From IMG/VR virus record IMGVR_UViG_3300028833_000001, positions 297,446 through 361,445 of that record: a DNA stretch of 64,000 nucleotides. The stretch is one strand, 5' to 3'. Below, one piece after another: positions 41,368 to 53,267 of this stretch. This DNA is from a virus. Lineage: Duplodnaviria; Heunggongvirae; Uroviricota; Caudoviricetes. How positions within the stretch are numbered: position 1 is the first letter of the stretch; every line of letters begins with the position of its first letter. The translations under genes and the position numbers were made by a program. The notes below the pieces were generated by a model. The model had not been told where the DNA came from, did not search any database, and saw only the letters and a program-made list of their open reading frames with translations.

Positions 41368-41988
41368 ATGGAAAAATTATTTTACAAATGGCTTAGTAGC
41401 AGTAAGTATTTGAAGTTTCATCAAGAAATAAAAAACGCTTTACGCGTTATTAATGAATATAAACTTTATGAATCGCCAAAATTCTTTTCTGAAAATATTC
41501 AATTTGATAAAAACAATGAAACCTGTCTGATTGATTCTTCAAGTGAAAGTATTACTATTTGTAAAACTGTTGTTGAGTCTAAACAATCATATAACATATT
41601 TATCGGCAACATTCAAATTAGAGTTGAAGAAAATAATATTAATAAAGAACAGGTATATAGTATCCATATTAAAGAAAATAATGGGTTAAACTGGGAAATT
41701 AAAAGAAATGACGAAGATTTGGATTATTGGGACTATTCACACCCGACAAACAAAACACTTAGAATTTTTGTTTGGTATGATGTACCAGTGTTAAACATCG
41801 CTCGTTCTGTTGGAGAAGTTTATGAAGCTGGAAACTGGAATAAGTATGTGTGCAAAACAATCGACTTTTTTACTACTGAAATTGATAAATGCACAGACTC
41901 ATCAAGTTTCAACACAATGTATGAAGAATCGGATTGGGAAAATTTCAAAAATTGGTTTAAAAATTTGTTCAATAAAAAACAAATGTAA
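41368..41988 (+). CDS. Hypothetical protein
   Basis: 206-aa ORF. Confidence 0.65.
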   Translation: MEKLFYKWLSSSKYLKFHQEIKNALRVINEYKLYESPKFFSENIQFDKNNETCLIDSSSESITICKTVVESKQSYNIFIGNIQIRVEENNINKEQVYSIHIKENNGLNWEIKRNDEDLDYWDYSHPTNKTLRIFVWYDVPVLNIARSVGEVYEAGNWNKYVCKTIDFFTTEIDKCTDSSSFNTMYEESDWENFKNWFKNLFNKKQM

Positions 41989-42335
41989 TAATAAATCAAA
42001 TATGAAAAATACGATAGAATAATTTAAAAAAAAAACTTGATTTTTTTAAAAAATAATACTATTTATATTTTTGAAATCACATAAGAATTTTATATCATTG
42101 AAATATGTTAAATAACATCTTTAGGAATATAGACCCATTATATTTGGACGCCCATAACGGTATCCAACAAGAAAGTCTTGTTCCAACAAGAGCAAAAAAT
42201 GAAAAACGTCTGAGGATGGTGGGAAAGTAAACAAACACAAAAACACATAGGTTTCTAACCACAACATATTTACCACCACTGAAGACAATATAGAACATGT
42301 TTCAGTGGTTTTTTTATGCCTGAACCTATGTAAAC

Positions 42336-42416
42336 TGTCATTTTGACGTATTAAATGTCAATTTGGCACATAAGCATGACAAAATGCCATAAATTTAAAT
42401 TGGCATGATGTTTGCA
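42336..42416 (+). promoter_or_regulatory. Sigma54-type promoter with three upstream TGNCA-N3-TGNC(A/G) boxes
   Basis: TGGCATGATGTTTGCA (42401-42416) has exact -24/-12 spacing. Boxes start at 42336, 42356 and 42377. Confidence 0.65.
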
Positions 42417-42434
42417 TAAATAAAAAAACGACAT

Positions 42435-42507
42435 GGTGCCGTTAGCTCAGTGGGTAGAGCGCATGTCTGTGGAACATGAGGCGTTGGTTCAAATCCAACA
42501 CGGCACC
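42435..42507 (+). tRNA. tRNA-His(GTG)
   Basis: Cloverleaf with G-1 and C73; CATGT-CTGTGGA-ACATG. Confidence 0.95.
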
Positions 42508-42566
42508 CGAAAAAAAAAGTTTGGAAGTTTAAAAAAAGATTTGTAATCTTACAAACACAAACGAGA

Positions 42567-42577
42567 GTTCTTTGAAA
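42567..42577 (+). promoter_or_regulatory. boxA-like antitermination site
   Basis: GTTCTTTGAAA shortly after a promoter-like TTTG..TAATCTTAC. Confidence 0.5.
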
Positions 42578-42589
42578 AAATTGAAATAT

Positions 42590-43036
42590 AAAGTGATTGT
42601 GAGAATGATAGCAAAACAACTATCATGCATAGGCGAGAAATCCCTATGTAGAATCTCCTAAATTCGGTAGAATCCTTAAAGGCGTTAGCCTTCGTAAGAG
42701 AGAAAATATGTAACCTCACTAAACAATAATGTGGAAGGACTAACCGAGCGAAAATGTAATGCGGAATTTCAATAAGTTAGGAAGATATTACATAATCGTG
42801 TAGAGGCCAAACGGGAGATACCTAAGTTGGAATTTGTATAATTGAGGGATAGCGCAAGCAAGTATGTTTTCTTTTAACAGTTAACAGAACAATCAAATTA
42901 TACATCTTGCAAGAATTCCAATATGGTAAGATGGTCCAGGCCACAACAACACTACAAGCAGTGTCGAAACCAGACATAAGTACTGTTGTAACAAAGTGTT
43001 GGCTATGATAACATAGTGTGGCATCACAATTACTTT
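42590..43036 (+). ncRNA. Group I intron-like structured RNA closed by a 13-bp terminal helix
   Basis: P3 ATCTCCT/GGGAGAT, P4 TTCGGT/ACCGAG, P7 GAGGCCA/TGGTCC, P8, P9. Ends AAAGTGATTGTGA/TCACAATTACTTT. Confidence 0.75.
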
Positions 43037-43041
43037 TACTT

Positions 43042-43114
43042 GCGCCCGTAACTCAGCTGGTAGAGTACATCCCTTTTAAGGATGGAGTCGTGGGTTCGAA
43101 TCCCACCGAGCGCA
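43042..43114 (+). tRNA. tRNA-Lys(TTT)
   Basis: Cloverleaf; CATCC-CTTTTAA-GGATG. Confidence 0.93.
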
Positions 43115-43141
43115 CAATAATAAATTTAAAATTATAATAAA

Positions 43142-43319
43142 ATGGAAGACGGGGCAAAAATTAAAAGAGTATCTTAAAAAAGAATTTGAATGGAATAATC
43201 ATAAGAAGTATAGGAAATATTTTGATGAATGGTATTCAAATTTAACAGAAAATCAAATACTATATTATAAAAGTTATTCTATTGGACAGAAATCACCATG
43301 GATTAAAATTGACAAATAA
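43142..43319 (+). pseudogene. Small ORF with apparent frameshift in an A-run
   Basis: The ATG frame stops after 11 codons. A shifted frame reads KLKEYLKKEFEWNNHKKYRKYFDEWY... to TAA. Confidence 0.35.
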
Positions 43320-43379
43320 AAAAAATGTAAGAAGATTTGGAAAATTTAAATTTAAATTGTATTCTTACATAGCGTTGAA

Positions 43380-43452
43380 CGGGTAGTGGCGCAGTTGGTA
43401 GCGCGCTTCATTTGGGATGAAGGGGTCGCAGGTTCGAGTCCTGTCTACCCGA
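43380..43452 (+). tRNA. tRNA-Pro(TGG)
   Basis: Cloverleaf; CTTCA-TTTGGGA-TGAAG. Confidence 0.95.
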
Positions 43453-43460
43453 CAAAAAAA

Positions 43461-43476
43461 GTTCTTTGACATATTG
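43461..43476 (+). promoter_or_regulatory. boxA-like antitermination site
   Basis: GTTCTTTGACATATTG, rrn-leader-like. Confidence 0.55.
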
Positions 43477-43574
43477 GAGAGAAGCTATTGAAATATATGT
43501 GGTAAAAACAATTTTTTGTTTTTAAAGCCAAATTATATCGTATAGTGGGCCTTTGTCTGCTGTACGATTTTTTC

Positions 43575-43664
43575 GGAGGGGTGGCCGAGTGGTTTAAGGC
43601 AGCGGTCTTGAAAACCGCCGAGGTGTAACAGCCTCCGTGGGTTCGAATCCCACCCCCTCCGCCA
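43575..43664 (+). tRNA. tRNA-Ser(TGA)
   Basis: Long variable arm, G73, encoded CCA. Confidence 0.95.
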
Positions 43665-43726
43665 TAATATAATGAAAACGTATATACATTTTGATTATCA
43701 CAAATATTTATTAATAAACCAATACT

Positions 43727-44443
43727 ATGAATCAGAAAAGAGAATACGTTAGAAAAAATTTGGATATAATAAACAAAATGATAGAAAACAAACGACCTAA
43801 GTTTGAAATAGCTAGGGTTTTGGGAGTTAAATATTCCACATTAGATAAATATTTAAAAGAATTTGGTATTGATTATAAAGGAAACCCAAATAGAAAGGGA
43901 ATTCCGCATATGGAAGGAAGAATGCTAATTGAAGAATATTTAAATGGAAATAGAAACATACAAGCATCTAAACTAAGACAAAAACTAATAGAAAATGGTT
44001 TAAAAGAAGAAAAATGTGAATGCTGTGGGTTAACTGAATGGATGGGTAAAAAAATTCCGTTAGAACTTCACCATAAAAATATGAACCATAACGATAATAG
44101 TTTAGACAATCTTCAAATACTTTGTTCTAATTGTCATTCTTTAGCACATGAATATAATAATACAAAAGGTAAACCAGAAAGTTCTATTGATACTATTTTA
44201 TTAAAAAAACGTGTTAAAGAGGTTGGTCATTGCAAACAGTGCGGAAAAGAATTAACAAATAGCCAGAAAATTTATTGTTCACAAGAGTGCGCTCATTTAA
44301 ATGTTAGTAAAATACCACAAAAAAACGAATTAATTGATAAATTAAATGAGTTTAACTGGAATAAAACAAAAACTGGTAAGTATTTTGGCGTAAGTGATAA
44401 CGCAATTCGTAAATGGATTAAAAAGTACGACATAAAAAAATAA
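43727..44443 (+). CDS. HNH endonuclease with HTH and Zn-ribbon modules
   Basis: CECCG..LELHHKNMNHNDNSLDNLQILCSNCH, with N- and C-terminal HTH. Confidence 0.9.
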   Translation: MNQKREYVRKNLDIINKMIENKRPKFEIARVLGVKYSTLDKYLKEFGIDYKGNPNRKGIPHMEGRMLIEEYLNGNRNIQASKLRQKLIENGLKEEKCECCGLTEWMGKKIPLELHHKNMNHNDNSLDNLQILCSNCHSLAHEYNNTKGKPESSIDTILLKKRVKEVGHCKQCGKELTNSQKIYCSQECAHLNVSKIPQKNELIDKLNEFNWNKTKTGKYFGVSDNAIRKWIKKYDIKK

Positions 44444-44444
44444 T

Positions 44445-44521
44445 ACCGCTGTGGGCAAATTGGTAAAGTCGGCTATTTTAGGGGTAGCGTCATATTGTCG
44501 GTTCGACTCCGACCAGCGGTA
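44445..44521 (+). tRNA. tRNA-Leu(TAG), short variable region
   Basis: GCTAT-TTTAGGG-GTAGC; 8-nt variable region. Confidence 0.8.
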
Positions 44522-44534
44522 CAATAAATAATTT

Positions 44535-44618
44535 GGCTCTGTGGTGGAATTGGTAGACACGACAGACTTAAAATCTGTTGTCCGAAAGGACGTGTGGGTT
44601 CGAGTCCCATTGGAGCCA
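44535..44618 (+). tRNA. tRNA-Leu(TAA)
   Basis: Cloverleaf with variable arm. Confidence 0.95.
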
Positions 44619-44623
44619 CATAA

Positions 44624-44769
44624 GCTCCTATAGTTCAATGGACAGAACAGAAGTTTCCTATACAAGAGTAAACTTGTTTAAATCATTTCTATGTGAAATT
44701 GGTTTTATTGGGTTCGAGTCCCACACATAGAACAAACTTCAAATCTTGGTTCGAATCCAAGTAGGAGTA
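44624..44769 (+). tRNA. tRNA-Arg(CCT) interrupted by a 74-nt insertion (44660-44733)
   Basis: Removing the insert gives GAAGT-TTCCTAA-ACTTC with normal D, T and acceptor arms. Confidence 0.85.
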
Positions 44770-44788
44770 CTAAACACATAACATATAT

Positions 44789-44873
44789 GGGAGTGCGGTC
44801 ACGATGGTGGAGTGGCGGCGGTCTGTAAAACCGTTACAACGAAACACAGTAGGTTCGAATCCTACCACTCCCA
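44789..44873 (+). tRNA. tRNA-Tyr(GTA), atypical D and variable arms
   Basis: GCGGT-CTGTAAA-ACCGT. Confidence 0.85.
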
Positions 44874-44892
44874 CGAAACAGCGAACATGCAC

Positions 44893-45030
44893 AAGCGCAA
44901 ACTGAAGGGGAATTGGTAAACCCTCGCCCCTAGATAACATCAGAGCAGGGAGGTTTGGTGAGGCAACCGTAAAAGTAATCCAGCATGTGTAGCAAGATGG
45001 AAGTTCTGGTTCGAGTCCAGATGAGCGCTT
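44893..45030 (+). ncRNA. tRNA-shell RNA (D and T arms, ~80-nt non-tRNA middle)
   Basis: AAGCGC/GCGCTT, GGG-GAATTGGTAAA-CCC, TCTGG-TTCGAGT-CCAGA. Confidence 0.55.
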
Positions 45031-45040
45031 ATTTTATGAT

Positions 45041-45114
45041 GGGCCCATAGTGATAGTTGGTTAGCACGGGAGCTTTGCAAGCTCTTAGCCTGGGTTCGAG
45101 TCCCAGTGGGTCCA
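45041..45114 (+). tRNA. tRNA-Ala(TGC)
   Basis: G3-U70 pair, cloverleaf. Confidence 0.93.
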
Positions 45115-45120
45115 CAAATT

Positions 45121-45293
45121 AAAAACAAACAAGGAGAGTGGGCTCGGTGATAAAAAACCTTGTATGAAATGGGTTACAGGGGAAAACCGAAAAATAATGT
45201 CCTGCAAAGGATATTCACACGTAGGCTGGTTAATTATCGTGGCCAGGGCCTTTGCTATCAGGTGACTACGCAAATCCTGATGTGTTTGTTTTT
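45121..45293 (+). ncRNA. Unidentified multi-junction structured RNA
   Basis: 11-bp closing stem plus at least 7 nested helices. Confidence 0.6.
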
Positions 45294-45331
45294 TTTGGTT
45301 CTATGGCTGAACTAGTAGACGCGACAGAGTC

Positions 45332-45387
45332 ATCAAGGCAAAAGAACGGTTCGACTCCTTAGTGTAACGGTAGCACATTGTCTTGAT
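45332..45387 (+). ncRNA. Permuted tRNA-elbow mimic (T loop before D arm)
   Basis: ATCAAGGCAA/TTGTCTTGAT encloses GG-TTCGACT-CC and then GTG-TAACGGTAG-CAC. Confidence 0.45.
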
Positions 45388-45395
45388 TTTCTCAC

Positions 45396-45483
45396 GGAGG
45401 GTTACCCAAGCTGGTGAAGGGGACGGTTTGCTAAACCGTTAGGTCACGAAAGTGGCGCGAGAGTTCGAGCCTCTCACCCTCCG
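45396..45483 (+). tRNA. tRNA-Ser(GCT)
   Basis: Long variable arm, G73. Confidence 0.95.
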
Positions 45484-45502
45484 CAAACAAATTTGGCTTT
45501 AT

Positions 45503-45607
45503 AATACACATAAAGGACACACTCGCCAATACCAATTGGCAAGCGAGAGAAGTTAGCGCAGGACGGAATTGAGGCCGTAAGTGTGATAGTGAAATGTAAA
45601 GTGTATT
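45503..45607 (+). ncRNA. Unidentified structured RNA
   Basis: AATACAC/GTGTATT closing stem; CACAC(T)/(A)GTGTG; CTCGC/GCGAG; ACGG/CCGT. Confidence 0.4.
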
Positions 45608-45615
45608 TTTTGATA

Positions 45616-45689
45616 AATGCTGTGATGGTGTAATAGGAAGCATCACCAGAATATCTGGAGGTACAGGTTCAAGTCCGAAACACAGCATT
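45616..45689 (+). ncRNA. tRNA-like RNA lacking an anticodon loop
   Basis: 9-bp AATGCTGTG/CACAGCATT, D arm, CCAGA-ATA-TCTGG, T loop. Confidence 0.55.
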
Positions 45690-45702
45690 GTTTTTAATAT
45701 AT

Positions 45703-45817
45703 GTGTTGATGGCGCAATGGTAGACGCACACATGCACGTGGTTCGCGGTTCGAGTCCGCAAGTAGTTGGGCACAACGAAAAAATGGTAGAATGATGGTTC
45801 GAATCCATCTCAACACA
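45703..45817 (+). ncRNA. tRNA-shell RNA with a second internal T-loop hairpin
   Basis: GTGTTGA/TCAACAC, D arm, internal GCGG-TTCGAGT-CCGC, terminal GATGG-TTCGAAT-CCATC. Confidence 0.6.
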
Positions 45818-45824
45818 CAATAAA

Positions 45825-46003
45825 TCCCCTATTAGTTCAATTGGCAGAACGTAGTTATATCAATTCTTTGACGAAAGAATAAATTGTATAACTAAGGTTG
45901 TAATTATTTTGTGAAGTAGTGACTTGTTGACAATGGGTGCGCAACAGAATCAAAGATTAGAGCTGTGAATCATTTTAACGGGGTTCGAATCCAACATAGG
46001 GGA
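45825..46003 (+). ncRNA. tRNA-shell RNA with extended anticodon arm and ~80-nt insert before the T loop
   Basis: TCCCCTAT/ATAGGGGA, GTTC-AATTGGCA-GAAC, TAGTTATA/TATAACTA, GG-TTCGAAT-CC. Confidence 0.55.
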
Positions 46004-46016
46004 CAGGTATAAGTAT

Positions 46017-46086
46017 CGGGATGTAGTTTAATGTTAAAATAATTGTGCTTAGGACAGTGATATAGGTGCGAATCCTATCATCTCGG
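46017..46086 (+). pseudogene. Degenerate duplicate of the adjacent interrupted tRNA-Pro
   Basis: Shares its 5' end, T arm and trailer CAAATATTTCATAT with 46120-46252. Lacks G18G19, U33 and the TTC T-loop. Confidence 0.65.
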
Positions 46087-46119
46087 CAAATATTTCATAT
46101 AGTATAAACATAATAGCAT

Positions 46120-46252
46120 CGGGATGTAGTTTAATTTGGTAAAATGCGTTAATTTTTTCGTGTTTTGTTCTTTAAAAACACAGACAGCAACTTTTCTTTA
46201 AAATTATTGTTTTGGGGAAACCGTGTTATAGGTTCGAATCCTATCATCCCGA
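46120..46252 (+). tRNA. tRNA-Pro(GGG) interrupted at 28/29 by a 60-nt insertion (46149-46208)
   Basis: Removing the insert gives CGGTT-TTGGGGA-AACCG. C1-G72 and A73 give Pro identity. Confidence 0.75.
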
Positions 46253-46266
46253 CAAATATTTCATAT

Positions 46267-46340
46267 GGGCCATCAGTCCAGTTGGAGTGGATGCCACCCT
46301 GTCACGGTGGAGAACGCGGGTTCGAGTCCCGCATGGCCCG
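46267..46340 (+). tRNA. tRNA-Asp(GTC)
   Basis: Cloverleaf, G73. Confidence 0.93.
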
Positions 46341-46350
46341 CTTTATAAGC

Positions 46351-46464
46351 AACATTCCCAGTGAAAAAGGGTTAGTAGTAGCGTTGTACAGCCAGTAACC
46401 CTGAGATAGTATCAAAATCAACGGTTAGACGTAGATGAACTGTAAGTACAACTTTGGGAATGTT
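46351..46464 (+). ncRNA. Unidentified pseudoknotted RNA
   Basis: AACATTCCCA/TGGGAATGTT; AGGGTTA/TAACCCT; loop GTTGTAC pairs with downstream GTACAAC. Confidence 0.6.
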
Positions 46465-46478
46465 TGTAATAATAAAAT

Positions 46479-46552
46479 AGCGGATTAGCTCAGTTGGTTA
46501 GAGCAGTACTCTTATAAAGTAAAGGTCCCCAGTTCAAGCCTGGGATTCGCTA
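46479..46552 (+). tRNA. tRNA-Ile(TAT)
   Basis: (G)TACT-CTTATAA-AGTA(A); otherwise canonical. Confidence 0.85.
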
Positions 46553-46562
46553 CAATCAATAG

Positions 46563-46743
46563 TGCGGGATGGAGCAGAGGTCAGCTCGTCAGGCTCAATA
46601 CAGAGTGGTTTTCTGAAAAAAACTGTTGATGCCAATTGTTCAAGAGAAGAGCCGATACACAATCAAATTGTGTGTCGAGGCTGGTTCGAGTCCAGCTGGC
46701 GTCGCTAACCTGAAGGTCGGGGGTTCGAATCCCTCTCCCGCTA
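46563..46743 (+). tRNA. Initiator tRNA-fMet(CAT) interrupted inside the anticodon by a 108-nt insertion (46598-46705)
   Basis: 1:72 mismatch and A11-U24. Removing the insert gives TCAGG-CTCATAA-CCTGA. Confidence 0.88.
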
Positions 46744-46938
46744 CAAATCCAGGTGCATAACGATTTGAAACCGTAGTGGGTGTTAAAACCACAGCCTGGA
46801 ATAATAAGATTGCAGCAATACTAGTCAGGCTGGTCTTTCCGTGAAAGTCGGACGTATTACCATGCAACGATAGCGTTGATACCTGTATAATGGCAGGTGT
46901 AGCAAATGGCCCGTCAGGTCGCTACTGACGGTTTTTAT

Positions 46939-47015
46939 GGGGCTGTAGCTCAGTTGGAAGAGCGCTGGACTGAAAATCCAGGACGTTAGCGGTGGTTCGA
47001 TTCCACCCAGCCCCG
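46939..47015 (+). tRNA. tRNA-Phe(GAA), 9-nt variable region, G73
   Basis: CTGGA-CTGAAAA-TCCAG. Confidence 0.85.
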
Positions 47016-47123
47016 CGTGAAAGGATGTAGTGTTCTTTGCCGTGTTTCAACAAAGTGCATCAACCAGCCTTTTGGATGTGGCGCCCAAGTCCATGAAAGG
47101 AGGACAAAATGAAAGCGGAGTAT

Positions 47124-47198
47124 GGGCTCGTAGCTCAGTCTGGTAGAGCATCTGATTTGCAATCAGAGGGTCATTGGTTCAAATCCCATCGTGGTCCA
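47124..47198 (+). tRNA. Second tRNA-Ala(TGC), imperfect acceptor and T stems (possibly decaying)
   Basis: TCTGA-TTTGCAA-TCAGA; extra base in the 3' acceptor strand. Confidence 0.7.
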
Positions 47199-47253
47199 CA
47201 AGCGATATCCGAATCAGTGAAATTATCGTTCAATGAGTTGAAAGAAGATATCA

Positions 47254-47326
47254 AGTGTTTAGTATATCGGAAGTACGTTACCAAGAACGAGTTGGTAAAA
47301 GTGTGAGTTCGAATCCCACAACACTA
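47254..47326 (+). ncRNA. Atypical tRNA-like RNA (7-bp anticodon stem, purine-rich loop)
   Basis: AGTGTT/AACACT, GTAT/GTAC, TTACCAA-GAACGAG-TTGGTAA, TTCGAAT loop. Confidence 0.55.
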
Positions 47327-47333
47327 TAATAAT

Positions 47334-47404
47334 AGGTTCCTAGTTCAATGGTAGAATAATGGTCTCCAAAACCATAGATTGAGGTTCGAGTCCTTGGGTT
47401 CCTG
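47334..47404 (+). tRNA. tRNA-Trp(CCA)
   Basis: ATGGT-CTCCAAA-ACCAT; two T:T mismatches in the acceptor stem. Confidence 0.85.
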
Positions 47405-47413
47405 CAATAAAAT

Positions 47414-47496
47414 AGCCAAGTGGCGGAATGGTAGACGCGAAGGTCTCAAAAACCTTTGGGGTAACCCCCGTGCGGGTTCAAGTCCCGCCTTGGCTA
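47414..47496 (+). tRNA. tRNA-Leu(CAA)
   Basis: Cloverleaf with variable arm. Confidence 0.93.
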
Positions 47497-47511
47497 CTGA
47501 TAGAAAAATAA

Positions 47512-47581
47512 AGGATACATACAGCAAACCTTTTTTTTAAGCATCAAACTTTTAATTTGAAAACGCTAAGAAAGTATCCTG
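47512..47581 (+). ncRNA. Free-standing ACAGCAA module presenting a Lys(TTT)-like anticodon stem-loop
   Basis: AGGATAC/GTATCCT, ACAGCAA at 47521, TCAAA-CTTTTAA-TTTGA. Confidence 0.65.
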
Positions 47582-47587
47582 TTTTAA

Positions 47588-47660
47588 CGCCCTATCGACA
47601 AGTGGTTTAAGTCATCACCCTTTCACGGTGGAGTCACGGGTTCGAATCCCGTTGGGGCGA
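47588..47660 (+). tRNA. tRNA-Glu(TTC)
   Basis: TCACC-CTTTCAC-GGTGG. Confidence 0.93.
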
Positions 47661-47679
47661 CAATAAAAAAAAATCAAAA

Positions 47680-48222
47680 ATGGAACAAGACGAATTGAAT
47701 CACAACAGGCGTGTTTTCGCAAATATTAACAAATTAGATATTGAAGATGTCCATCCAATCCCAAAGGTCGAATTAGTTGTTGGGAAAACATATAAAGGCA
47801 ATTGTAGGAATTCAGATAATGCGGTTTGGGATGGAAAAGTATTTTGGTACGACAGGCACAAGTTTGGTAGTACATTTAGGGAAAGTATAAATCACTACGA
47901 AGATGATGATGGTTACGATGTTTTTGTCCCATTTGAAACAGATGAATCGTTTATTGTTCTTCCAGAAGATTCGGTTAAGAAACTTTCTGATAGAGATTAT
48001 TGGGGTACTATTGAGAAAATATTTATGGAAATTACCAATTTGATGACGGAAAAAGCATTTATTAATGAAGCTAAACATATGTACCCAAATATGTCAGATG
48101 AAGACATTAGAAAACAATTGAAAAACATGCTTTACGATAATTATGGAAATATTGTAAGAGGTGCTGATATGTTTGATTTTAGTGGTAAGTTAAAAGGTGA
48201 ACCAGGAACTCCTGGAAAATAA
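47680..48222 (+). CDS. Hypothetical protein within the tRNA array
   Basis: 180 aa, codon style matches the other genes. Confidence 0.7.
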   Translation: MEQDELNHNRRVFANINKLDIEDVHPIPKVELVVGKTYKGNCRNSDNAVWDGKVFWYDRHKFGSTFRESINHYEDDDGYDVFVPFETDESFIVLPEDSVKKLSDRDYWGTIEKIFMEITNLMTEKAFINEAKHMYPNMSDEDIRKQLKNMLYDNYGNIVRGADMFDFSGKLKGEPGTPGK

Positions 48223-48237
48223 TAAAACAAAAAAAAC

Positions 48238-48310
48238 GCCGATGTAGCTCAATTGGCAGAGCGTTACACTTGTAATGTAAATATTGTAGGTTCGATTCCT
48301 ATCATCGGCT
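48238..48310 (+). tRNA. tRNA-Thr(TGT)
   Basis: TTACA-CTTGTAA-TGTAA. Confidence 0.93.
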
Positions 48311-48378
48311 CTTAAAATAAAATTTATCCCGAAACGTGTTTTTAGCTTTTTATGACTATTTATAAAAAAAATAGTAAT

Positions 48379-49083
48379 ATGAATAATTTTGAAAATTGCA
48401 AATCGTTAAATGACATTGCTAGGCAAGAATTTGGAAAAGCAAACTATACTAATCGTGAGAAAGCTAAAAAACTATTATTTGAACACGGAATAGATTGGTT
48501 AGATTGGCTAGAATCTATTAAAATTTCTAATAAAAAGTTTTGTCTTGTTTGTGGTAAAGAATTAAGAAATGGTCAAACAAAATTTTGCAGCCATTCATGT
48601 TCTGCTGGATATAACAATAAGTTTCGAAAAACATATAAAGATAATGAAAGCCGAGAACATCATGAAAAAATTACCAAAAGTGACAAATTCTGTTTGTATT
48701 GTGGCGCAAAATTAACAAATCAACAAAAATTATTTTGTAATAATAAATGTCAACAAGATTTCAAGTATAAAGAATATATAGACCGATGGATAAATGGTGA
48801 TGAAAATGGTTTAAAGGGCCAGTATTCTTTATCAAGGCACATCAGGCGATTTTTATTGGAAAAAACAAATTGTAAATGTGAAAAATGTGGCTGGGGAGAA
48901 AAAAATCCATATACAAACACAATCCCATTAGAAATACATCATATTGATGGTGATTATACAAATAACAAGGAAGAGAATCTTCAGGTTTTGTGTCCAAATT
49001 GTCATTCTTTAACAGAAACACACAAATCACATAATAAGAACGGAAGACAAGGTAGAAGAAAATATTATAAAAAAACAGAATAA
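48379..49083 (+). CDS. HNH endonuclease with two CxxC..FCxxxC Zn modules
   Basis: CEKCG..LEIHHIDGDYTNNKEENLQVLCPNCH. Start placed at MNNFE after ACTATTTAT (48355-48363). Confidence 0.9.
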   Translation: MNNFENCKSLNDIARQEFGKANYTNREKAKKLLFEHGIDWLDWLESIKISNKKFCLVCGKELRNGQTKFCSHSCSAGYNNKFRKTYKDNESREHHEKITKSDKFCLYCGAKLTNQQKLFCNNKCQQDFKYKEYIDRWINGDENGLKGQYSLSRHIRRFLLEKTNCKCEKCGWGEKNPYTNTIPLEIHHIDGDYTNNKEENLQVLCPNCHSLTETHKSHNKNGRQGRRKYYKKTE

Positions 49084-49217
49084 GCTAAAGCTCTTTACCG
49101 ATACGTAGCGGTAAATGGTGCGTACCCAGGGTCAGACGCACGGTTGTATTCTGTACCTATATATGGATGATGTACAGCTTTTATGTGTAGGTTAAACAAA
49201 TATGGCCCGACCAATAA

Positions 49218-49350
49218 TATCTTAATGCTGAGCGTGAATGAAGAAAACGGAAACCAAAGGCAACATAGCTGTAGCAGAATTTGATTGCAATGGATAACAG
49301 TGAAACACGCAAGATTCAGTAGATAATGCTTTGACGGTTGCATTAAGGTA
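49218..49350 (+). ncRNA. Unidentified helix-closed RNA
   Basis: TATCTTAATGC/GCATTAAGGTA; inner CTGAG/TTCAG and GCGTG/CACGC. Confidence 0.5.
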
Positions 49351-49354
49351 GCAA

Positions 49355-49423
49355 GTGGAGTAGCTTTATAAGGATGAGCCTTGGATTTTACCAAGAGGTG
49401 GTAGTTCGAATCTGCCCTCCACA
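49355..49423 (+). ncRNA. tRNA-like RNA with a 6-nt anticodon loop
   Basis: GTGGAG/CTCCAC, GCTT/GAGC, CTTGG-ATTTTA-CCAAG, GGTAG-TTCGAAT-CTGCC. Confidence 0.6.
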
Positions 49424-49642
49424 ACAAAAGCAAACGAAACCAGTTGACCAGATGGGATAAAACGCATAGTCATCCGTGATGCCACTGCGGATTAATAAAT
49501 AGATGGCTAAGACGGAGGTAACGTTACCGTTTAAACAACTATATTTTTAATGCTGACAGAGCGGGCGTGGAAAGTTCTTGAAATGTTAATATAAAACTGC
49601 CAGAATCGCAAAATTGTACGGGTTTGCACGTGCAAAACTTTT

Positions 49643-49714
49643 GGGGAGGTAGCTCAACGGTAGAGCAACTGGCTGTTAACCAGTAGGTTGTGGGTTCGAA
49701 ACCCACCCTCCCCG
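49643..49714 (+). tRNA. tRNA-Asn(GTT)
   Basis: ACTGG-CTGTTAA-CCAGT, G73. Confidence 0.92.
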
Positions 49715-49719
49715 CGAAT

Positions 49720-50132
49720 ATACCAATTAACAGTAGGCTTGAAAGCAGCCATCTGATAATGAGTTGCGAGAGGAAGTTTGCGTGGAAGTCATGACTCCGC
49801 AAAATAACAAGGCGCATGTGAGTAACTTGGCAATAAGCATGTGAGAAACACCTCAGGAATAGCGAACGTGGAAATCCCCGATGCAAAGAAAGGAACACAG
49901 TTGAAATACTGTGCGAGGTTCCAGTAGCGTGACGGTGCATCGAAGCTATGTAGCTAAGTTTTATGTAAGCCCCAACAGTACGAGAGGAACCTGGGGTCAA
50001 TGGGTGCCATGAATTTGGTTTCTATGCCGTAAGTGAGTCGGTAAAGAACGCGAGAAGTATCAAGTGAAGACTCGCGCCCAAAAGCATAAAACAGTCCTTA
50101 GAGCATTTGGCGTGGCAGCACATAATTGGTAT
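49720..50132 (+). ncRNA. Large ornate RNA with a 23S H43/H44 mimic (GOLLD-like candidate)
   Basis: ATACCAATTA/TAATTGGTAT ends; AGTAGGCTTGAAAGCAGCCATC; GGCGTGGCAGCAC; many internal helices. Confidence 0.7.
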
Positions 50133-50135
50133 TAT

Positions 50136-50207
50136 GCGGGTATAGCACAACGGTTAGTGTGCCAGCTTGCCATGCTGGAAATGTCAGTTCGATTCTGATT
50201 ACCCGCT
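50136..50207 (+). tRNA. tRNA-Gly(GCC)
   Basis: CCAGC-TTGCCAT-GCTGG, U73. Confidence 0.93.
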
Positions 50208-50212
50208 CATAT

Positions 50213-50286
50213 GGCGGCATAGCGGAGTTGGTTTCATGCGCCGCTCTCATAAGGCGGAGACGGTGGTTCGAATCCACCTGCCGCCA
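50213..50286 (+). tRNA. tRNA-Met(CAT), elongator type
   Basis: G1-C72 paired; CCGCT-CTCATAA-GGCGG. Ile2 is not strictly excluded. Confidence 0.85.
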
Positions 50287-50287
50287 C

Positions 50288-50512
50288 AAGTCAAGAACAG
50301 ACCACCGAGTAGTGTTCGGGGTAAATTGAATGGGGATGTATACTTAACCAGTCAATGTAGTCTTGGGTGGTGTGACCCTCAGCCCGATGAAAAGTGTCAG
50401 TTATCGTGAGGTACTGTAGCGCAACGCAACAGGAGGTAAAACCCTATGTGGTAACGCAATCCTCGTCTAGCCGAGGTTTCTCCAGTCCGTAGCTCGTAAA
50501 TTTTCTTGACTT
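50288..50512 (+). ncRNA. Unidentified ~225-nt structured RNA
   Basis: AAGTCAAGAA/TTCTTGACTT perfect closing stem; CGAGT/GCTCG, TGGGGA/TCTCCA, CCTCG/CGAGG. Confidence 0.6.
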
Positions 50513-50521
50513 ATTTTTTTT

Positions 50522-50640
50522 CGGGGAGTAGCTCAGTTGGTTAGAGCGCGTAATGTAGATTCTTGTAAAAGAATCAAACAGCAATGTTTACGAATGTCAT
50601 TTGAAGACCGTGGTCGTGGGTTCGAGTCCCACCTCCCCAG
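50522..50640 (+). tRNA. tRNA-Gln(TTG) interrupted at 28/29 by a 45-nt insertion (50551-50595)
   Basis: Removing the insert gives CGGTC-ATTTGAA-GACCG; weak 1:72 pair, G73. Confidence 0.8.
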
Positions 50641-50648
50641 CAAATTAT

Positions 50649-50803
50649 ATTTGGCTAATTTGAGGTTCAAGAAGGCCCCCGTAAGATGGACAATCGTGGG
50701 GGCAATGCTTGAGATGGATACTGTGAAGGGACAGCCATAAGTCATGAAGTACAGTTAGATGTGGGGTCTGGTGGAATGACAGACTGTGTAGGATTAACCA
50801 AAT
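50649..50803 (+). ncRNA. Unidentified ~155-nt structured RNA
   Basis: ATTTGGCTAATTT/GGATTAACCAAAT; TCAAG/CTTGA; GCCCCC/GGGGGC; GGTCTG/CAGACT. Confidence 0.55.
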
Positions 50804-50807
50804 TTAT

Positions 50808-50878
50808 TGAGCCATCGTCTAACGGCAAGACACCAGATTTTGGTTCTGGGAATCGAGGTTCGAATCCTCGTGGCTCAA
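50808..50878 (+). tRNA. tRNA-Gln(TTG)
   Basis: U1-A72; CCAGA-TTTTGGT-TCTGG. Confidence 0.93.
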
Positions 50879-50885
50879 CAAACAA

Positions 50886-50958
50886 CTTCCCATAGTTCAA
50901 TGGATTAGAACGTGAGTCCACGAAACTCAAGATTGGGGTTCGAGTCCCTGTGGGGAGA
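50886..50958 (+). tRNA. tRNA-Arg(ACG) with C33
   Basis: TGAGT-CCACGAA-ACTCA, A20. Confidence 0.85.
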
Positions 50959-50996
50959 CTTAATACATATATCGAAATAGTTTCAATCCAGAATAT

Positions 50997-51071
50997 GCGT
51001 CTGTAGCTCAGTTTGGTTAGAGCACTACACTGATAATGTAGGGGTCGCTGGTTCAAGTCCAGCCAGACGCA
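50997..51071 (+). tRNA. tRNA-Ile(GAT)
   Basis: CTACA-CTGATAA-TGTAG. Confidence 0.95.
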
Positions 51072-51104
51072 CTTGAGTTGATGCTAACATGGCACAACTA
51101 TTAT

Positions 51105-51180
51105 GCGGGTGTAGCTCAGTTGGTTCAGTAGCGCTTGCCTTACAAGCAAGAGGTCGTAGGTTCGACTCCTACCATCCGCA
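51105..51180 (+). tRNA. tRNA-Val(TAC)
   Basis: CTTGC-CTTACAA-GCAAG. Confidence 0.92.
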
Positions 51181-51190
51181 CATTTATTAT

Positions 51191-51265
51191 GCTCCAGTAG
51201 CTCAATGGATGAGCGGCACCCTTCTAAGGTGCGGGTTGTAGGTTCGAGTCCTACCTGGAGTACCA
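51191..51265 (+). tRNA. tRNA-Arg(TCT)
   Basis: GCACC-CTTCTAA-GGTGC, encoded CCA. Confidence 0.95.
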
Positions 51266-51340
51266 TATATAGATAGGGCCGAATTGGTGATGGAATGCCA
51301 AAGTTAAATAAGCTTTGGTAAGTAAAGAAATGTTATCATT

Positions 51341-51586
51341 ATGAGTGAATTTGGAGAATTTAAAAGAAATAATTATTTGGTCAATCATCCGTATGGTAAT
51401 CCATATGAGAATAAAGCATTTGTGCTTACTGCGGAGCAACAAAAAGAGCTTGAACGCAAAGTGGATTTAGAATGGACATTGTATTATTTGAAGAAAGCAA
51501 TTAGATTGTTTGGTGATATTAAAATCAGTGATGCAATTGCCAAAACAAAACACGAACTTGAGCCTAAAATCAATTTTAAGCATTAA
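51341..51586 (+). CDS. Hypothetical protein
   Basis: 81-aa ORF after the array. Confidence 0.6.
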   Translation: MSEFGEFKRNNYLVNHPYGNPYENKAFVLTAEQQKELERKVDLEWTLYYLKKAIRLFGDIKISDAIAKTKHELEPKINFKH

Positions 51587-51602
51587 AAATGCATGTTTTA
51601 AA

Positions 51603-53267
51603 TTAAAAACCGCAATATGAAATTGTTTGAGATTGCATTTCAGCCCATATTGATGATGACCCGCTTAATTTAAGGTCGGTATTGTAGGCATGCGTCTTCC
51701 AGCATGGTTCGCATAGAATATATGATATATCAGCGTTTAATTCAATTTGAAGTGAATAATTATGAGTACTTGACGTTCCAGTTGCAGTTAAAGACGCATC
51801 TGTAAGTGTTTGGTTTGTATATGCCACGCCAGAAGAAGTTGATATTGTTGTAGTTGTATCAGTATAATATGGGGCGACATATGTTAATTCAAATGTTTCA
51901 GAGACTATTGAAGTGTTTGTTGTGTTGTCAAATAAGGTGTATATGGCGCTACCGCTAAGAACTGTTATTGAGTGAAATTTTGAATATGTAATACCACTTA
52001 AATAACAATTAATTATTGGTGACGCAATCATAATGGTTGTAGCGTTTGGGGCTGAAAATGTTGCAACATTTCCAGTAAGTGACATATTTCCTGAATATAC
52101 ACGCGCATTTGAAAACCATTCAGAACTATTTTGGTCGAATGACCCAGCTAGGTTTGAAAAATCTTCAATTGAAGTATAGTTATTATAATCAGTCGATGGA
52201 GTGTATGTTTTAATACTTGTAACTTCACCGCTCCAGTAAGATGTAGTGATATACCCAGTAATTGGTGGGTTTTCAGGAAAATCATCTCCAGGGTTATAAG
52301 GATTAGTTCTTAAATAATCTTCAATTCTAAGTGTAAGTATATCTTGATTTGTGGCTATTGTACTGTAAACAAAAGGTTGGTTACTCAATTCAGGCGGTTG
52401 CTGCACTCTTGAATAATTTTTATAGTTACCAAGACTTTGTGCTATATTTGGTATTATATCAGGAAACGTTTCTTCAAGTCTTAAATTTGATGCAACCTCT
52501 CCGTCTCCGCTTAAAATATGATTAAAGCTATTATATAGCGCAAAGATATTACTACTAGTTTGCGTTGCTTCGTATAGTCTTGTGGTTTTTATTGATGGTT
52601 TAAACCCATTACGTGATGCTTTAAAATAAGATATAGTACCAGGTATCCCGCTTACATATGTGTTGTTTCCAGTATTACCTGTTACTACGATATTACCATC
52701 ATGCCCAGAATATACATAATTTACATTAGAAATTGAACAATTATTGGTGTCTATAAAGTTATGCGTTGTACTGATTGGGAATTGTCTGACATTAACTGAA
52801 CCAATTTTAGGGTATGATGGCGAAAAAGTTTTAATACCAGTTTCAACACCGTCATATATTTCAGAATATATTGTCCAATAGAATGGGTTATCGTCACCGT
52901 GAATTTCGTCAGCCACATAATCAAAGTATCCGTTTTCCCTTGTAGAAAGCGTGAAAGGTATGAACGTATTCCCTGTCATGGTATATCGTTTGTCTCTTTG
53001 ATATTTGTCTATTTCTCTAGAGTCCAACCAAGGAGGAAGATATAATGTATTCGTAATAACAACACCAGAATTCCAAATTGACACGTCGCGTCCGCTGTTT
53101 CTTTCTAACAGACTTCTGCATTGTGTAACATTTCCTCCGCTCACAATAAAAAATGGGTTTGTTTGTCTGTCAGTTATGATAATAGAGTTTTCTATTGGCG
53201 TTCTTCCGTCAGCATGATAAACAGAAAAATTAAATTCAAATTTCCAAAATAATTTATTTACAGCCAT
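51603..53267 (-). CDS. Hypothetical S/T/N-rich protein (probable virion component)
   Basis: 554 aa, beta-rich. CTATTTAT lies on the minus strand at 53286-53293. Confidence 0.65.
   Translation of the reverse strand: MAVNKLFWKFEFNFSVYHADGRTPIENSIIITDRQTNPFFIVSGGNVTQCRSLLERNSGRDVSIWNSGVVITNTLYLPPWLDSREIDKYQRDKRYTMTGNTFIPFTLSTRENGYFDYVADEIHGDDNPFYWTIYSEIYDGVETGIKTFSPSYPKIGSVNVRQFPISTTHNFIDTNNCSISNVNYVYSGHDGNIVVTGNTGNNTYVSGIPGTISYFKASRNGFKPSIKTTRLYEATQTSSNIFALYNSFNHILSGDGEVASNLRLEETFPDIIPNIAQSLGNYKNYSRVQQPPELSNQPFVYSTIATNQDILTLRIEDYLRTNPYNPGDDFPENPPITGYITTSYWSGEVTSIKTYTPSTDYNNYTSIEDFSNLAGSFDQNSSEWFSNARVYSGNMSLTGNVATFSAPNATTIMIASPIINCYLSGITYSKFHSITVLSGSAIYTLFDNTTNTSIVSETFELTYVAPYYTDTTTTISTSSGVAYTNQTLTDASLTATGTSSTHNYSLQIELNADISYILCEPCWKTHAYNTDLKLSGSSSIWAEMQSQTISYCGF

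Follow-up and report, generated by a model that had tools for sequence, protein, structure and literature searches.

A tRNA-shaped insert in the anticodon loop of a huge-phage tRNA-Arg(CCT) gene and the phage intron family to which it belongs

The interrupted tRNA-Arg(CCT) gene and its sister in the array

The stretch of DNA analysed here (the window, 64,000 nucleotides) comprises positions 297,446 to 361,445 of an IMG/VR virus record of 361,445 bp (G000:C1:297446-361445), which represents an uncultured huge phage, has a GC content of 34% and is complete by CheckV rating. Between window positions 42436 and 51265 lies an array of about 30 tRNA genes, all on one strand, with two open reading frames (ORFs) for HNH endonucleases interspersed among them, and our subject is one of these genes, a tRNA-Arg(CCT) at 44624-44769 on the plus strand, whose anticodon loop is interrupted by 74 nt that fold into a short hairpin followed by a minihelix resembling the acceptor and T arms of a tRNA. 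The Rfam tRNA model covers the whole interval as a single tRNA into which a long stretch is inserted (51.3 bits, E = 7e-9), and ARAGORN, with introns allowed, reports it as tRNA-Arg(cct) i(37,74), the sole Arg(CCT) gene that this program finds in the G000 genome.

The stems of the host tRNA are complete: an acceptor stem GCTCCTA/TAGGAGT with a G1.U72 pair, a D arm GTTC/GAAC, an anticodon stem GAAGT/ACTTC and a T arm CTTGG/CCAAG, the anticodon loop reading TT-CCT[74 nt]AA. The 5' exon (44624-44659) runs from the acceptor 5' strand through the D arm, GAAGT and the loop bases TT to the anticodon CCT, and is identical at 35 of 36 positions to the intronless orthologue of a related phage (G001); the 3' exon (44734-44769) continues with the loop bases AA, ACTTC, the variable loop, the T arm, the acceptor 3' strand and the discriminator A, with no CCA encoded. 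The insert between them opens with AU (44660-44661), of which A1 is found in 14 of the 15 aligned members of the family described below and U2 is invariant. A hairpin with the stem ACAAG/CTTGT and the loop AGTAAA follows (44662-44677), seen by folding and with a stem that covaries in the family, and then an A-rich linker, TTAAATCAT (44678-44686), for which the family alignment gives the consensus AAAUCA... The minihelix begins with the 9-nt 5' strand of an acceptor-like stem, TTCTATGTG (44687-44695), which pairs with 44724-44732, continues through a D-loop-like connector of 13 nt, AAATTGGTTTTAT (44696-44708), with the GG that is present in 23 of 24 parsed members, and folds into a T arm, TGGG-TTCGAGT-CCCA (44709-44723), of 4 bp and a 7-nt loop, the loop-closing GC being invariant among 21 distinct members. 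The 3' strand of the acceptor-like stem, CACATAGAA (44724-44732), brings the stack by pairing analysis to 9+4 = 13 bp, and a single unpaired, discriminator-like C (44733), invariant in 26/26 members, is the last base of the insert.

Each element that the initial annotation had listed for the insert at 44660-44733 is thus present at its place, and the ambiguity of one nucleotide that it had noted at the boundary (36/37 or 37/38) is real. The minimum free energy fold of 44624-44769 retains the host cloverleaf together with the helices of the insert (z = -3.2). The spliced junction is predicted to read ..GUUUCCUAAACUUC.., the exon border lying between AGUUUCCU and AAACUUC. The linker AAAUCA could pair with UGGUUU of the connector in the Arg copy, and by eye a similar 5-bp pairing is available in the tRNA-Phe intron of another related phage (G002) and in none of the minimal tRNA-Asn introns. 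We rejected the possibility that the insert is an independent tRNA gene nested within another, as only a 13-nt connector separates the acceptor-like stem from the T arm, there is no anticodon arm, and neither ARAGORN nor Rfam calls an inner tRNA.

A second gene of the array, at 46563-46744 on the plus strand, is interrupted in the same manner, and the suggestion that it forms a family with the Arg(CCT) gene proved right. It is an initiator-like tRNA with a U1.U72 mismatch, the sole gene of this kind seen in the array, and its body is presumably close to bacterial tRNA-fMet. ARAGORN, folding and our parser (see below) agree on a 108-nt intron (46598-46705) with 13 layers and a final C, placed between A35 and U36 of CAU. 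The anticodon CAT results solely from this boundary, which separates CA from T; ARAGORN miscalls the gene as Arg(cct).

A family of tRNA-shaped introns in huge phages

Related huge-phage records (G001, G002, G003 and G005) were retrieved with the phage DnaK as query and their tRNA arrays scanned with ARAGORN. The orthologous tRNA-Arg(CCT) of G002 carries an intron of 101 nt with a different minihelix (8+5 bp), and that of a further contig (L202) one of 121 nt with the shared 5' module (start and hairpin) and yet another minihelix, likewise compensated; the first 26 nt of the Arg intron in G000 match both at all but one base. The tRNA-Arg(CCT) of G001 is present without the insert. Introns of the same design as the Arg(CCT) insert interrupt the tRNA-Phe(GAA) genes of G001 and G002, and the tRNA-Pro(TGG) of G005 holds a divergent tRNA-shaped intron. 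No such intron was found in G003, the scan covering its 19-kb tRNA region, and a search for relatives through a neighbouring protein of 554 aa found none. A covariance model, R1, was then built from 15 intron sequences, the Arg(CCT) insert among them, and R1 searches together with pattern scans of viral, metagenome and genome collections added as hosts tRNA-Asn, Tyr, Gly(TCC), Thr(TGT), Lys(TTT), Ala(TGC), Pro(TGG) and initiator-like Met. The Arg(CCT) insert scores 68.7 bits with R1, of which it is itself a training sequence; the tRNA-Gly(TCC) intron of a Lak-sized record of 553,716 bp (L065/G008) scores 82 bits and is a training sequence too, through L149. Altogether 26 members were collected from 10 kinds of tRNA and from several lineages of huge phages, the 554-kb Lak-sized record included, and one genome (G006) holds at least four of them, in different tRNAs.

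The position of these introns can be read from the tRNAs that remain. Removal of exactly the segment from A1 to the final C leaves an anticodon loop of 7 nt in every case, the Arg loop becoming UUCCUAA, and the junction falls at 36/37 in Arg, Gly, Thr, Lys, Pro, Ala and the initiator-like tRNA of one contig (L166) and at 35/36 in Asn and in the initiator of G000. The two initiator-like tRNAs are homologous, the intron of L166 lying one base further 3' (CAT-intron-AA against CA-intron-T), and both restore CTCATAA. Similarly, hosts that read CTGT-intron-TAA have the short variable arms of tRNA-Asn and those that read CTGT-intron-AAA the long variable arms of bacterial tRNA-Tyr. The boundaries are set by the intron itself and not by the host tRNA. 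Between G000 and G002, 6 of 72 exon nucleotides of the Arg(CCT) gene differ, all of them in loops except for position 1, where G.U becomes A-U, and no stem is broken; the intronless gene of G001 is collinear with exon 1 plus exon 2 of G000. Restored loops, fitting anticodons, constraint on the exons and an intronless orthologue are together hard to explain without precise splicing of the RNA to a tRNA that works, and speak against a pseudogene or a scaffold. From this comparison of sequences, we conclude that the 74-nt insert is a real and precisely bounded intron, from 44660 to 44733, that has to be removed at the RNA level.

The architecture of the family is equally strict. An unbiased parser, free to choose between 9 and 16 layers and a tail of 0 to 3 nt, returned for 24 of the 26 members exactly 13 bp and a one-base tail, C, the other two having a single mismatch. 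The 13 layers are divided between acceptor-like stem and T arm as 9+4, 8+5, 7+6 or 6+7, and yet the 3' junction always lies 13+1 nt from the 7-nt loop. Among 21 distinct members, 93.8% of the cells are paired as against 64.8% in shuffles, and the covariation score is 0.74 as against 0.20, a value that none of 500 shuffles reached and that falls to 0.14 or less in slid registers; in the alignment of these members to the model, the 8+5 stack is 98-99% paired, with double compensatory changes at 12 of its 13 pairs. As this alignment was fitted to the model, RNAalifold was also run on a plain MAFFT alignment, and it again gave the 8+5 stack; of the 14 pairs that it predicted, 13 show compensatory changes. 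At the other end, the intron starts with (A/U)UA in all members (in the alignment of 15, A1 is present in 14 and U2 and A3 are invariant), and the 5' hairpin has 4-6 bp, covarying stems such as ACAG/CTGT, ATGG/CCAT, ACGG/CCGT and CTGAC/GTCAG, and an A-rich loop, AGUAAA in most. No sequence is conserved in the connector that leads from the acceptor-like strand to the T arm, and its length lies anywhere between 7 and 91 nt.

The three marks by which the initial annotation had defined a conserved, structure-defined class of introns, namely the ATACA-type start, the 13-bp stack and the terminal C, are all kept in the homologues, and the comparison across homologues that it called for uncovered strong compensatory covariation in the stack; the class itself therefore stands. 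Its further proposal, that a ruler measured from the T loop sets the 3' cut, fared less evenly. The invariant 13+1 nt in spite of a varying split is as predicted, but such a ruler would not have to read the sequence of the T loop, since two tRNA-Thr(TGT) variants (L182 3143-3227 and L040 8465-8545) share the 5' module and keep the 8+5 stack and the terminal C with the loop AGYGAUA.

In the prokaryote collection, scanned as one genome for each of 185,579 species, only one of 67 pattern matches was a true member; as far as this exact pattern can reach, phages are thus essentially the only place where the family occurs. The single member (L245 5058-5154) lies on a 24.7-kb contig binned into a metagenome-assembled genome (MAG) of an uncultured Bacteroidales and matches R1 with a length and a score equal to those of the Phe intron of G001; the contig is either a hint of the host or a mis-binned phage contig. 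Of the DNA patterns used, the first (ATACARGAGT...GGTTCGAGTCC) was discarded because it mostly matched ordinary tRNAs by chance. For the second, most matches in viral contigs fell in one conserved protein-coding stretch, and one base was added to exclude it before the metagenome and genome collections were scanned. A free-standing element of four contigs (L002, L005, L006 and L008), which consists of ATACAGGAGT, a hairpin and a minihelix 3' of a tRNA, was taken as unrelated: the copy of L002 does not fit R1, and inspection by eye shows fewer than 13 bp in its stack. In an odd tRNA on another contig (L007 10275-10392, minus strand), the size of the anticodon loop differs from 7 nt and the position of the variable arm is occupied by a hairpin that starts ATACAAGAGT (TACAAG/CTTGTA); this hairpin is perhaps a 5' module that has moved, or the resemblance is due to chance. 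Finally, a tRNA-Tyr(GTA) (L049 7958-8250, minus strand) contains an intron of 208 nt, a size compatible with a true group I intron, in an array that also has four small tRNA-shaped introns.

The class itself is not new. In 2019, Devoto et al. (Nat Microbiol, PMC6784885) described 'enigmatic' introns in tRNAs of the Lak megaphages, one of which 'may encode a tRNA', in the 'Tyr(GTA)', Thr(TGT), Phe(GAA) and Gly(TCC) tRNAs (Fig. 4 and Table S6), without an Rfam classification or a mechanism and without showing that they are spliced. In the sequences of Table S6, the Tyr and Thr introns have an (A)TACA-type start followed by a hairpin, and the 'Tyr' intron ends, by eye, in an 8+5 stack and C (PMC6784885). 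Judging by these shared features, the Arg(CCT) insert belongs to the same family. What is new here is a member in another lineage of phages and in another host tRNA, Arg-CCT: G000 has 361 kb and 34% GC compared with about 26% GC in complete Lak genomes (Table 1 of PMC6784885), and its insert of 74 nt is a minimal version. Neither a rule for the boundaries nor the 13-bp rule nor a mechanism is to be found in the 2019 paper, and our search of the literature for a later explanation of Lak-type introns found none. In the Table S6 entries for Lak A1 and A2, the label 'Tyr(GTA)' probably stands for an Asn(GTT) reading CTGT-intron-TAA, the likelier assignment in view of the A1-to-C rule and the short variable arm, since tRNAscan in its eukaryote mode forces the junction to 37/38.

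Candidate routes of removal

The well-known classes of introns do not account for the insert. Within 41500-52500, no Rfam family other than tRNA was matched (4227 families, E <= 1), which sets aside group I and group II introns and the known small ribozymes. Group I introns do occur in anticodon loops of bacteria, plastids and phages (tRNA-Leu UAA, fMet, Arg CCU, Ile CAU), with about 200 nt or more, and the likeness extends to the site, to the hosts Arg-CCU and fMet, to presence/absence polymorphism and to homing endonuclease genes nearby. The Arg insert, however, is at 74 nt too short for group I, as it is for group II, and has no P3-P8 core, it ends like the 26/26 members in C and not in G, and the last base of the 5' exon, a conserved U in group I, may be U, C, A or G. 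Nor can a bulge-helix-bulge of the archaeal and eukaryal kind form, because the bases beside the 3' border belong to the variable stack and are unable to pair with the conserved AUACA start; the tRNA-intron endonuclease EndA (PF01974) had no match in G000, G001, G002, G006 and G008, the archaeal controls being positive. Introns spliced by proteins in archaea and eukaryotes (EndA/Sen with RtcB or Trl1) resemble the phage introns in being short, in lying in or near the anticodon loop and in their dependence on protein enzymes and a ligase, and in eukaryotes a ruler principle sets the cut sites; they differ in that the position of the Arg insert is set by the intron and not by the body of the tRNA, and in the setting, a bacteriophage.

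The minihelix itself also has parallels. In the mascRNA of MALAT1, in the tRNA punctuation of mitochondria and in the tRNA-like domain of tmRNA, an embedded acceptor/T-arm minihelix marks the processing sites, and D and anticodon arms are dispensable; unlike these elements excised by RNase P and RNase Z, the Arg insert is nested in another tRNA whose flanks need to be rejoined and has an extra hairpin module 5' of the minihelix. The 13-bp acceptor/T stack is shared with tRNA-Sec, 8+5 in bacteria and 9+4 in archaea and eukaryotes, and both splits occur in the intron family, but the insert lacks an anticodon arm, a long variable arm and a UCA anticodon, and the likeness is only geometric. RNase Z cuts right after the unpaired discriminator, leaving a 3'-OH, reads the backbone of acceptor stem and T arm with D and anticodon arms dispensable, and is inhibited by CC just downstream (PMC7479834). 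The corresponding features are present in the insert, a 13-bp stack and an unpaired C, with AA as the next bases in the Arg gene and A, U or G next across the family, so the specificity of RNase Z would put the 3' splice site exactly where the comparison places it.

The likeliest route, in our view, would be splicing by proteins or ribonucleoprotein enzymes that recognise the shape of a tRNA. The 13-bp minihelix and its unpaired C would mimic the 3' end of a pre-tRNA without CCA, and an RNase Z-type enzyme would cut right after C44733, so that the 3' splice site is made and the 3' exon starts with a 5'-phosphate. Another nuclease, possibly an RNase E/G-like enzyme of the host or an enzyme of the phage, would cut 1-2 bases upstream of the 5' hairpin, between N and AUA, leaving a 3'-OH; RNase P may cut as well, at the border of linker and minihelix. 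An ATP-dependent RNA ligase would then reseal the anticodon loop, and here the phage offers a candidate: G000 encodes a 415-aa protein with the domains PHA02142-OB and RNA_ligase that is related to the RNA ligase of Naegleria gruberi (E = 2.5e-33). Rnl5 enzymes, which this protein resembles, are ATP-dependent and join a 3'-OH to a 5'-phosphate. G006 and G008, the two further intron-bearing records with good coverage, have PF09414 ligases as well, RtcB (PF01139) and Rnl1 (PF09511) had no match above the family cut-offs in the phages, and G000 further encodes a nucleotidyltransferase of PF01743 (CCA-adding type). We give this scheme of an RNase Z-type cut, a second nuclease and an RNA ligase a probability of roughly 0.45.

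Several points weigh against it. The scheme accounts for the 3' cut alone, since no known enzyme is predicted to cut between N and AUA, and a cut by RNase P at the 5' end of the minihelix would leave the 5' module of 24-29 nt on the 5' exon. The requirement of RNase Z, a stack of at least about 12 bp, leaves the strictness of the 13 layers unexplained, and the AGYGAUA loop of the two Thr(TGT) variants suggests that a tRNA elbow perhaps need not be recognised. Nor does the ligase set intron carriers apart, given that G003 has one of PF09414 and no introns in its scanned 19-kb tRNA region, and ligases of the Rnl5 type prefer nicks in duplex RNA. The idea that AUCA of the linker mimics RCCA and lets RNase P make the 5' cut was rejected, as members differ by 0-2 nt in the spacing between AUCA and the hairpin, and no conserved ORF other than those for HNH proteins is shared between the arrays that could be a candidate for the nuclease.

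A dedicated endonuclease could instead read the three-way junction of anticodon stem, 5' hairpin and minihelix and cut both strands, leaving a 2',3'-cyclic phosphate and a 5'-OH for ligation by the RtcB of the host. This follows the logic of archaeal and eukaryal tRNA splicing with another recognition motif, and it would suit the two splice sites, which lie 1-2 unpaired bases outside a helix (A1 and C) and close together at the junction, and also the strict 13 layers and the conserved 5' module, which suggest a bespoke recognition surface more than generic tRNA processing. RtcB is present in a Bacteroides control genome, one member of the family lies on the Bacteroidales MAG contig, and Lak phages infect Prevotella (PMC6784885). 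Yet no candidate for such a nuclease was found, the five records searched have no EndA-like gene, a bulge-helix-bulge cannot form, and the phages carry ATP-dependent ligases for 3'-OH and 5'-phosphate ends with no match to RtcB; we consider this route unlikely. Still less probable is that the conserved A-rich module (AUA, the AGUAAA loop, the AAAUCA linker) and the minihelix make up the catalytic fold of a new small self-splicing or self-cleaving ribozyme. The module is conserved across distant phages beyond what a spacer would need, and its loop and linker could form tertiary contacts, but only about 25 nt are conserved in all, the connector of 7 to 91 nt has no conserved sequence, no Rfam ribozyme matches, and there is neither a terminal G nor a conserved last base of the 5' exon; of all the explanations weighed here, we hold this one to be the most improbable.

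The introns might also not be spliced at all, the gene being a disrupted tRNA or a scaffold from which RNase P and RNase Z free a small tRNA-like 'elbow' acting as a decoy or a regulator at the expense of the host tRNA. The minihelix does resemble a good substrate of RNase P and RNase Z. However, the flanks always rebuild a 7-nt loop with the anticodon that fits the body (Asn versus Tyr, and initiator CAU at two registers), the exons are under tRNA-like constraint in the orthologues, of which one is intronless, and the Arg(CCT) and initiator-like genes have no second copy among those that ARAGORN finds in the genome and that are seen in the array, respectively; we regard it as quite improbable, if less so than a ribozyme. 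Returning to the RNase Z-type scheme, one may take it a step further and picture a third kind of tRNA splicing in huge phages, one not known from bacteria, in which the mini-tRNA of the intron would direct RNase Z (and perhaps RNase P) to cut at 13 bp plus one, the hairpin would direct the other cut, a phage ligase of the Rnl5 type would seal the exons and HNH endonucleases would help the intron to spread; this composite picture is tentative and on balance doubtful. As to function, the earlier suggestion that the intron hides the anticodon from anticodon nucleases is pure speculation.

To our knowledge, every bacterial or phage tRNA intron that is understood so far is a self-splicing intron of group I, and protein-dependent tRNA splicing is regarded as a trait of archaea and eukaryotes. 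A widespread family of tRNA-shaped phage introns, far below the size of group I, would thus imply a route of splicing that has not been described. The boundary from A1 to C, the 13-layer stack, the 5' hairpin module and the insertion at 35/36 or 36/37 make the 2019 remark on 'enigmatic' introns experimentally testable. They also matter for annotation: tRNA finders in bacterial mode miss the intron-bearing genes, and in eukaryote mode they misplace the junction and can misassign the anticodon (Asn as Tyr, the initiator as Arg), which distorts the tRNA repertoires and the recoding that are attributed to phages.

Spread of the introns and other features of the tRNA arrays

The introns are probably selfish elements, a reading to which presence/absence polymorphism among orthologous tRNAs, the occurrence of several members in different tRNAs of one genome, 5' modules that are nearly identical in distant phages and the HNH ORFs of the arrays all lead. 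This distribution suggests that the free-standing HNH endonucleases of the tRNA arrays aid their spread between phages (collaborative homing). In the window, an ORF for a free-standing HNH/HTH endonuclease, recognised through Pfam, lies within the array (43727-44443, plus strand); it is possibly linked to the mobility of the intron, its membership in the system being uncertain. Homologues of this ORF and of the second HNH ORF of the window (48352-49083) are found inside the arrays of eight contigs from intron-bearing phages (L040, L041, L042, L046, L049, L107, L135 and L202), among them ORFs at L202 3220-3645, L107 2781-3566 and L046 4225-4653, and those of L202 and L107 directly adjoin intron-bearing tRNAs.

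Outside the window, the locus of the Rnl5-like ligase (G000:C1:5511-9083, L094) also contains proteins with vWA/DUF7788 and DUF932 domains, which flank the ligase, and the three may constitute a cluster resembling those for RNA repair.

A second and distinct class of tRNA inserts, made of a hairpin and the motif ACAGCAA, is present in the window at 46120-46252 and 50522-50640 and in many copies in L040, L041 and L042, and the intron calls of ARAGORN indicate that it is common throughout the arrays of related phages. In the Thr(TGT) introns of L182 and L040, the motif ACAGCAA/ACAGCGA overlaps the 5-bp stem, and these introns may link both classes of inserts. Next to the first of the window's two genes with an insert of this second class lies a tRNA (46017-46087; 42.5 bits with Rfam) that ARAGORN calls with the anticodon UUA ('tRNA-Stop'), in which C and not U precedes the anticodon. 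It shares with the gene at 46120-46252 the first 16 nt and a large part of the 3' end, and may be a degenerate copy or else a suppressor.

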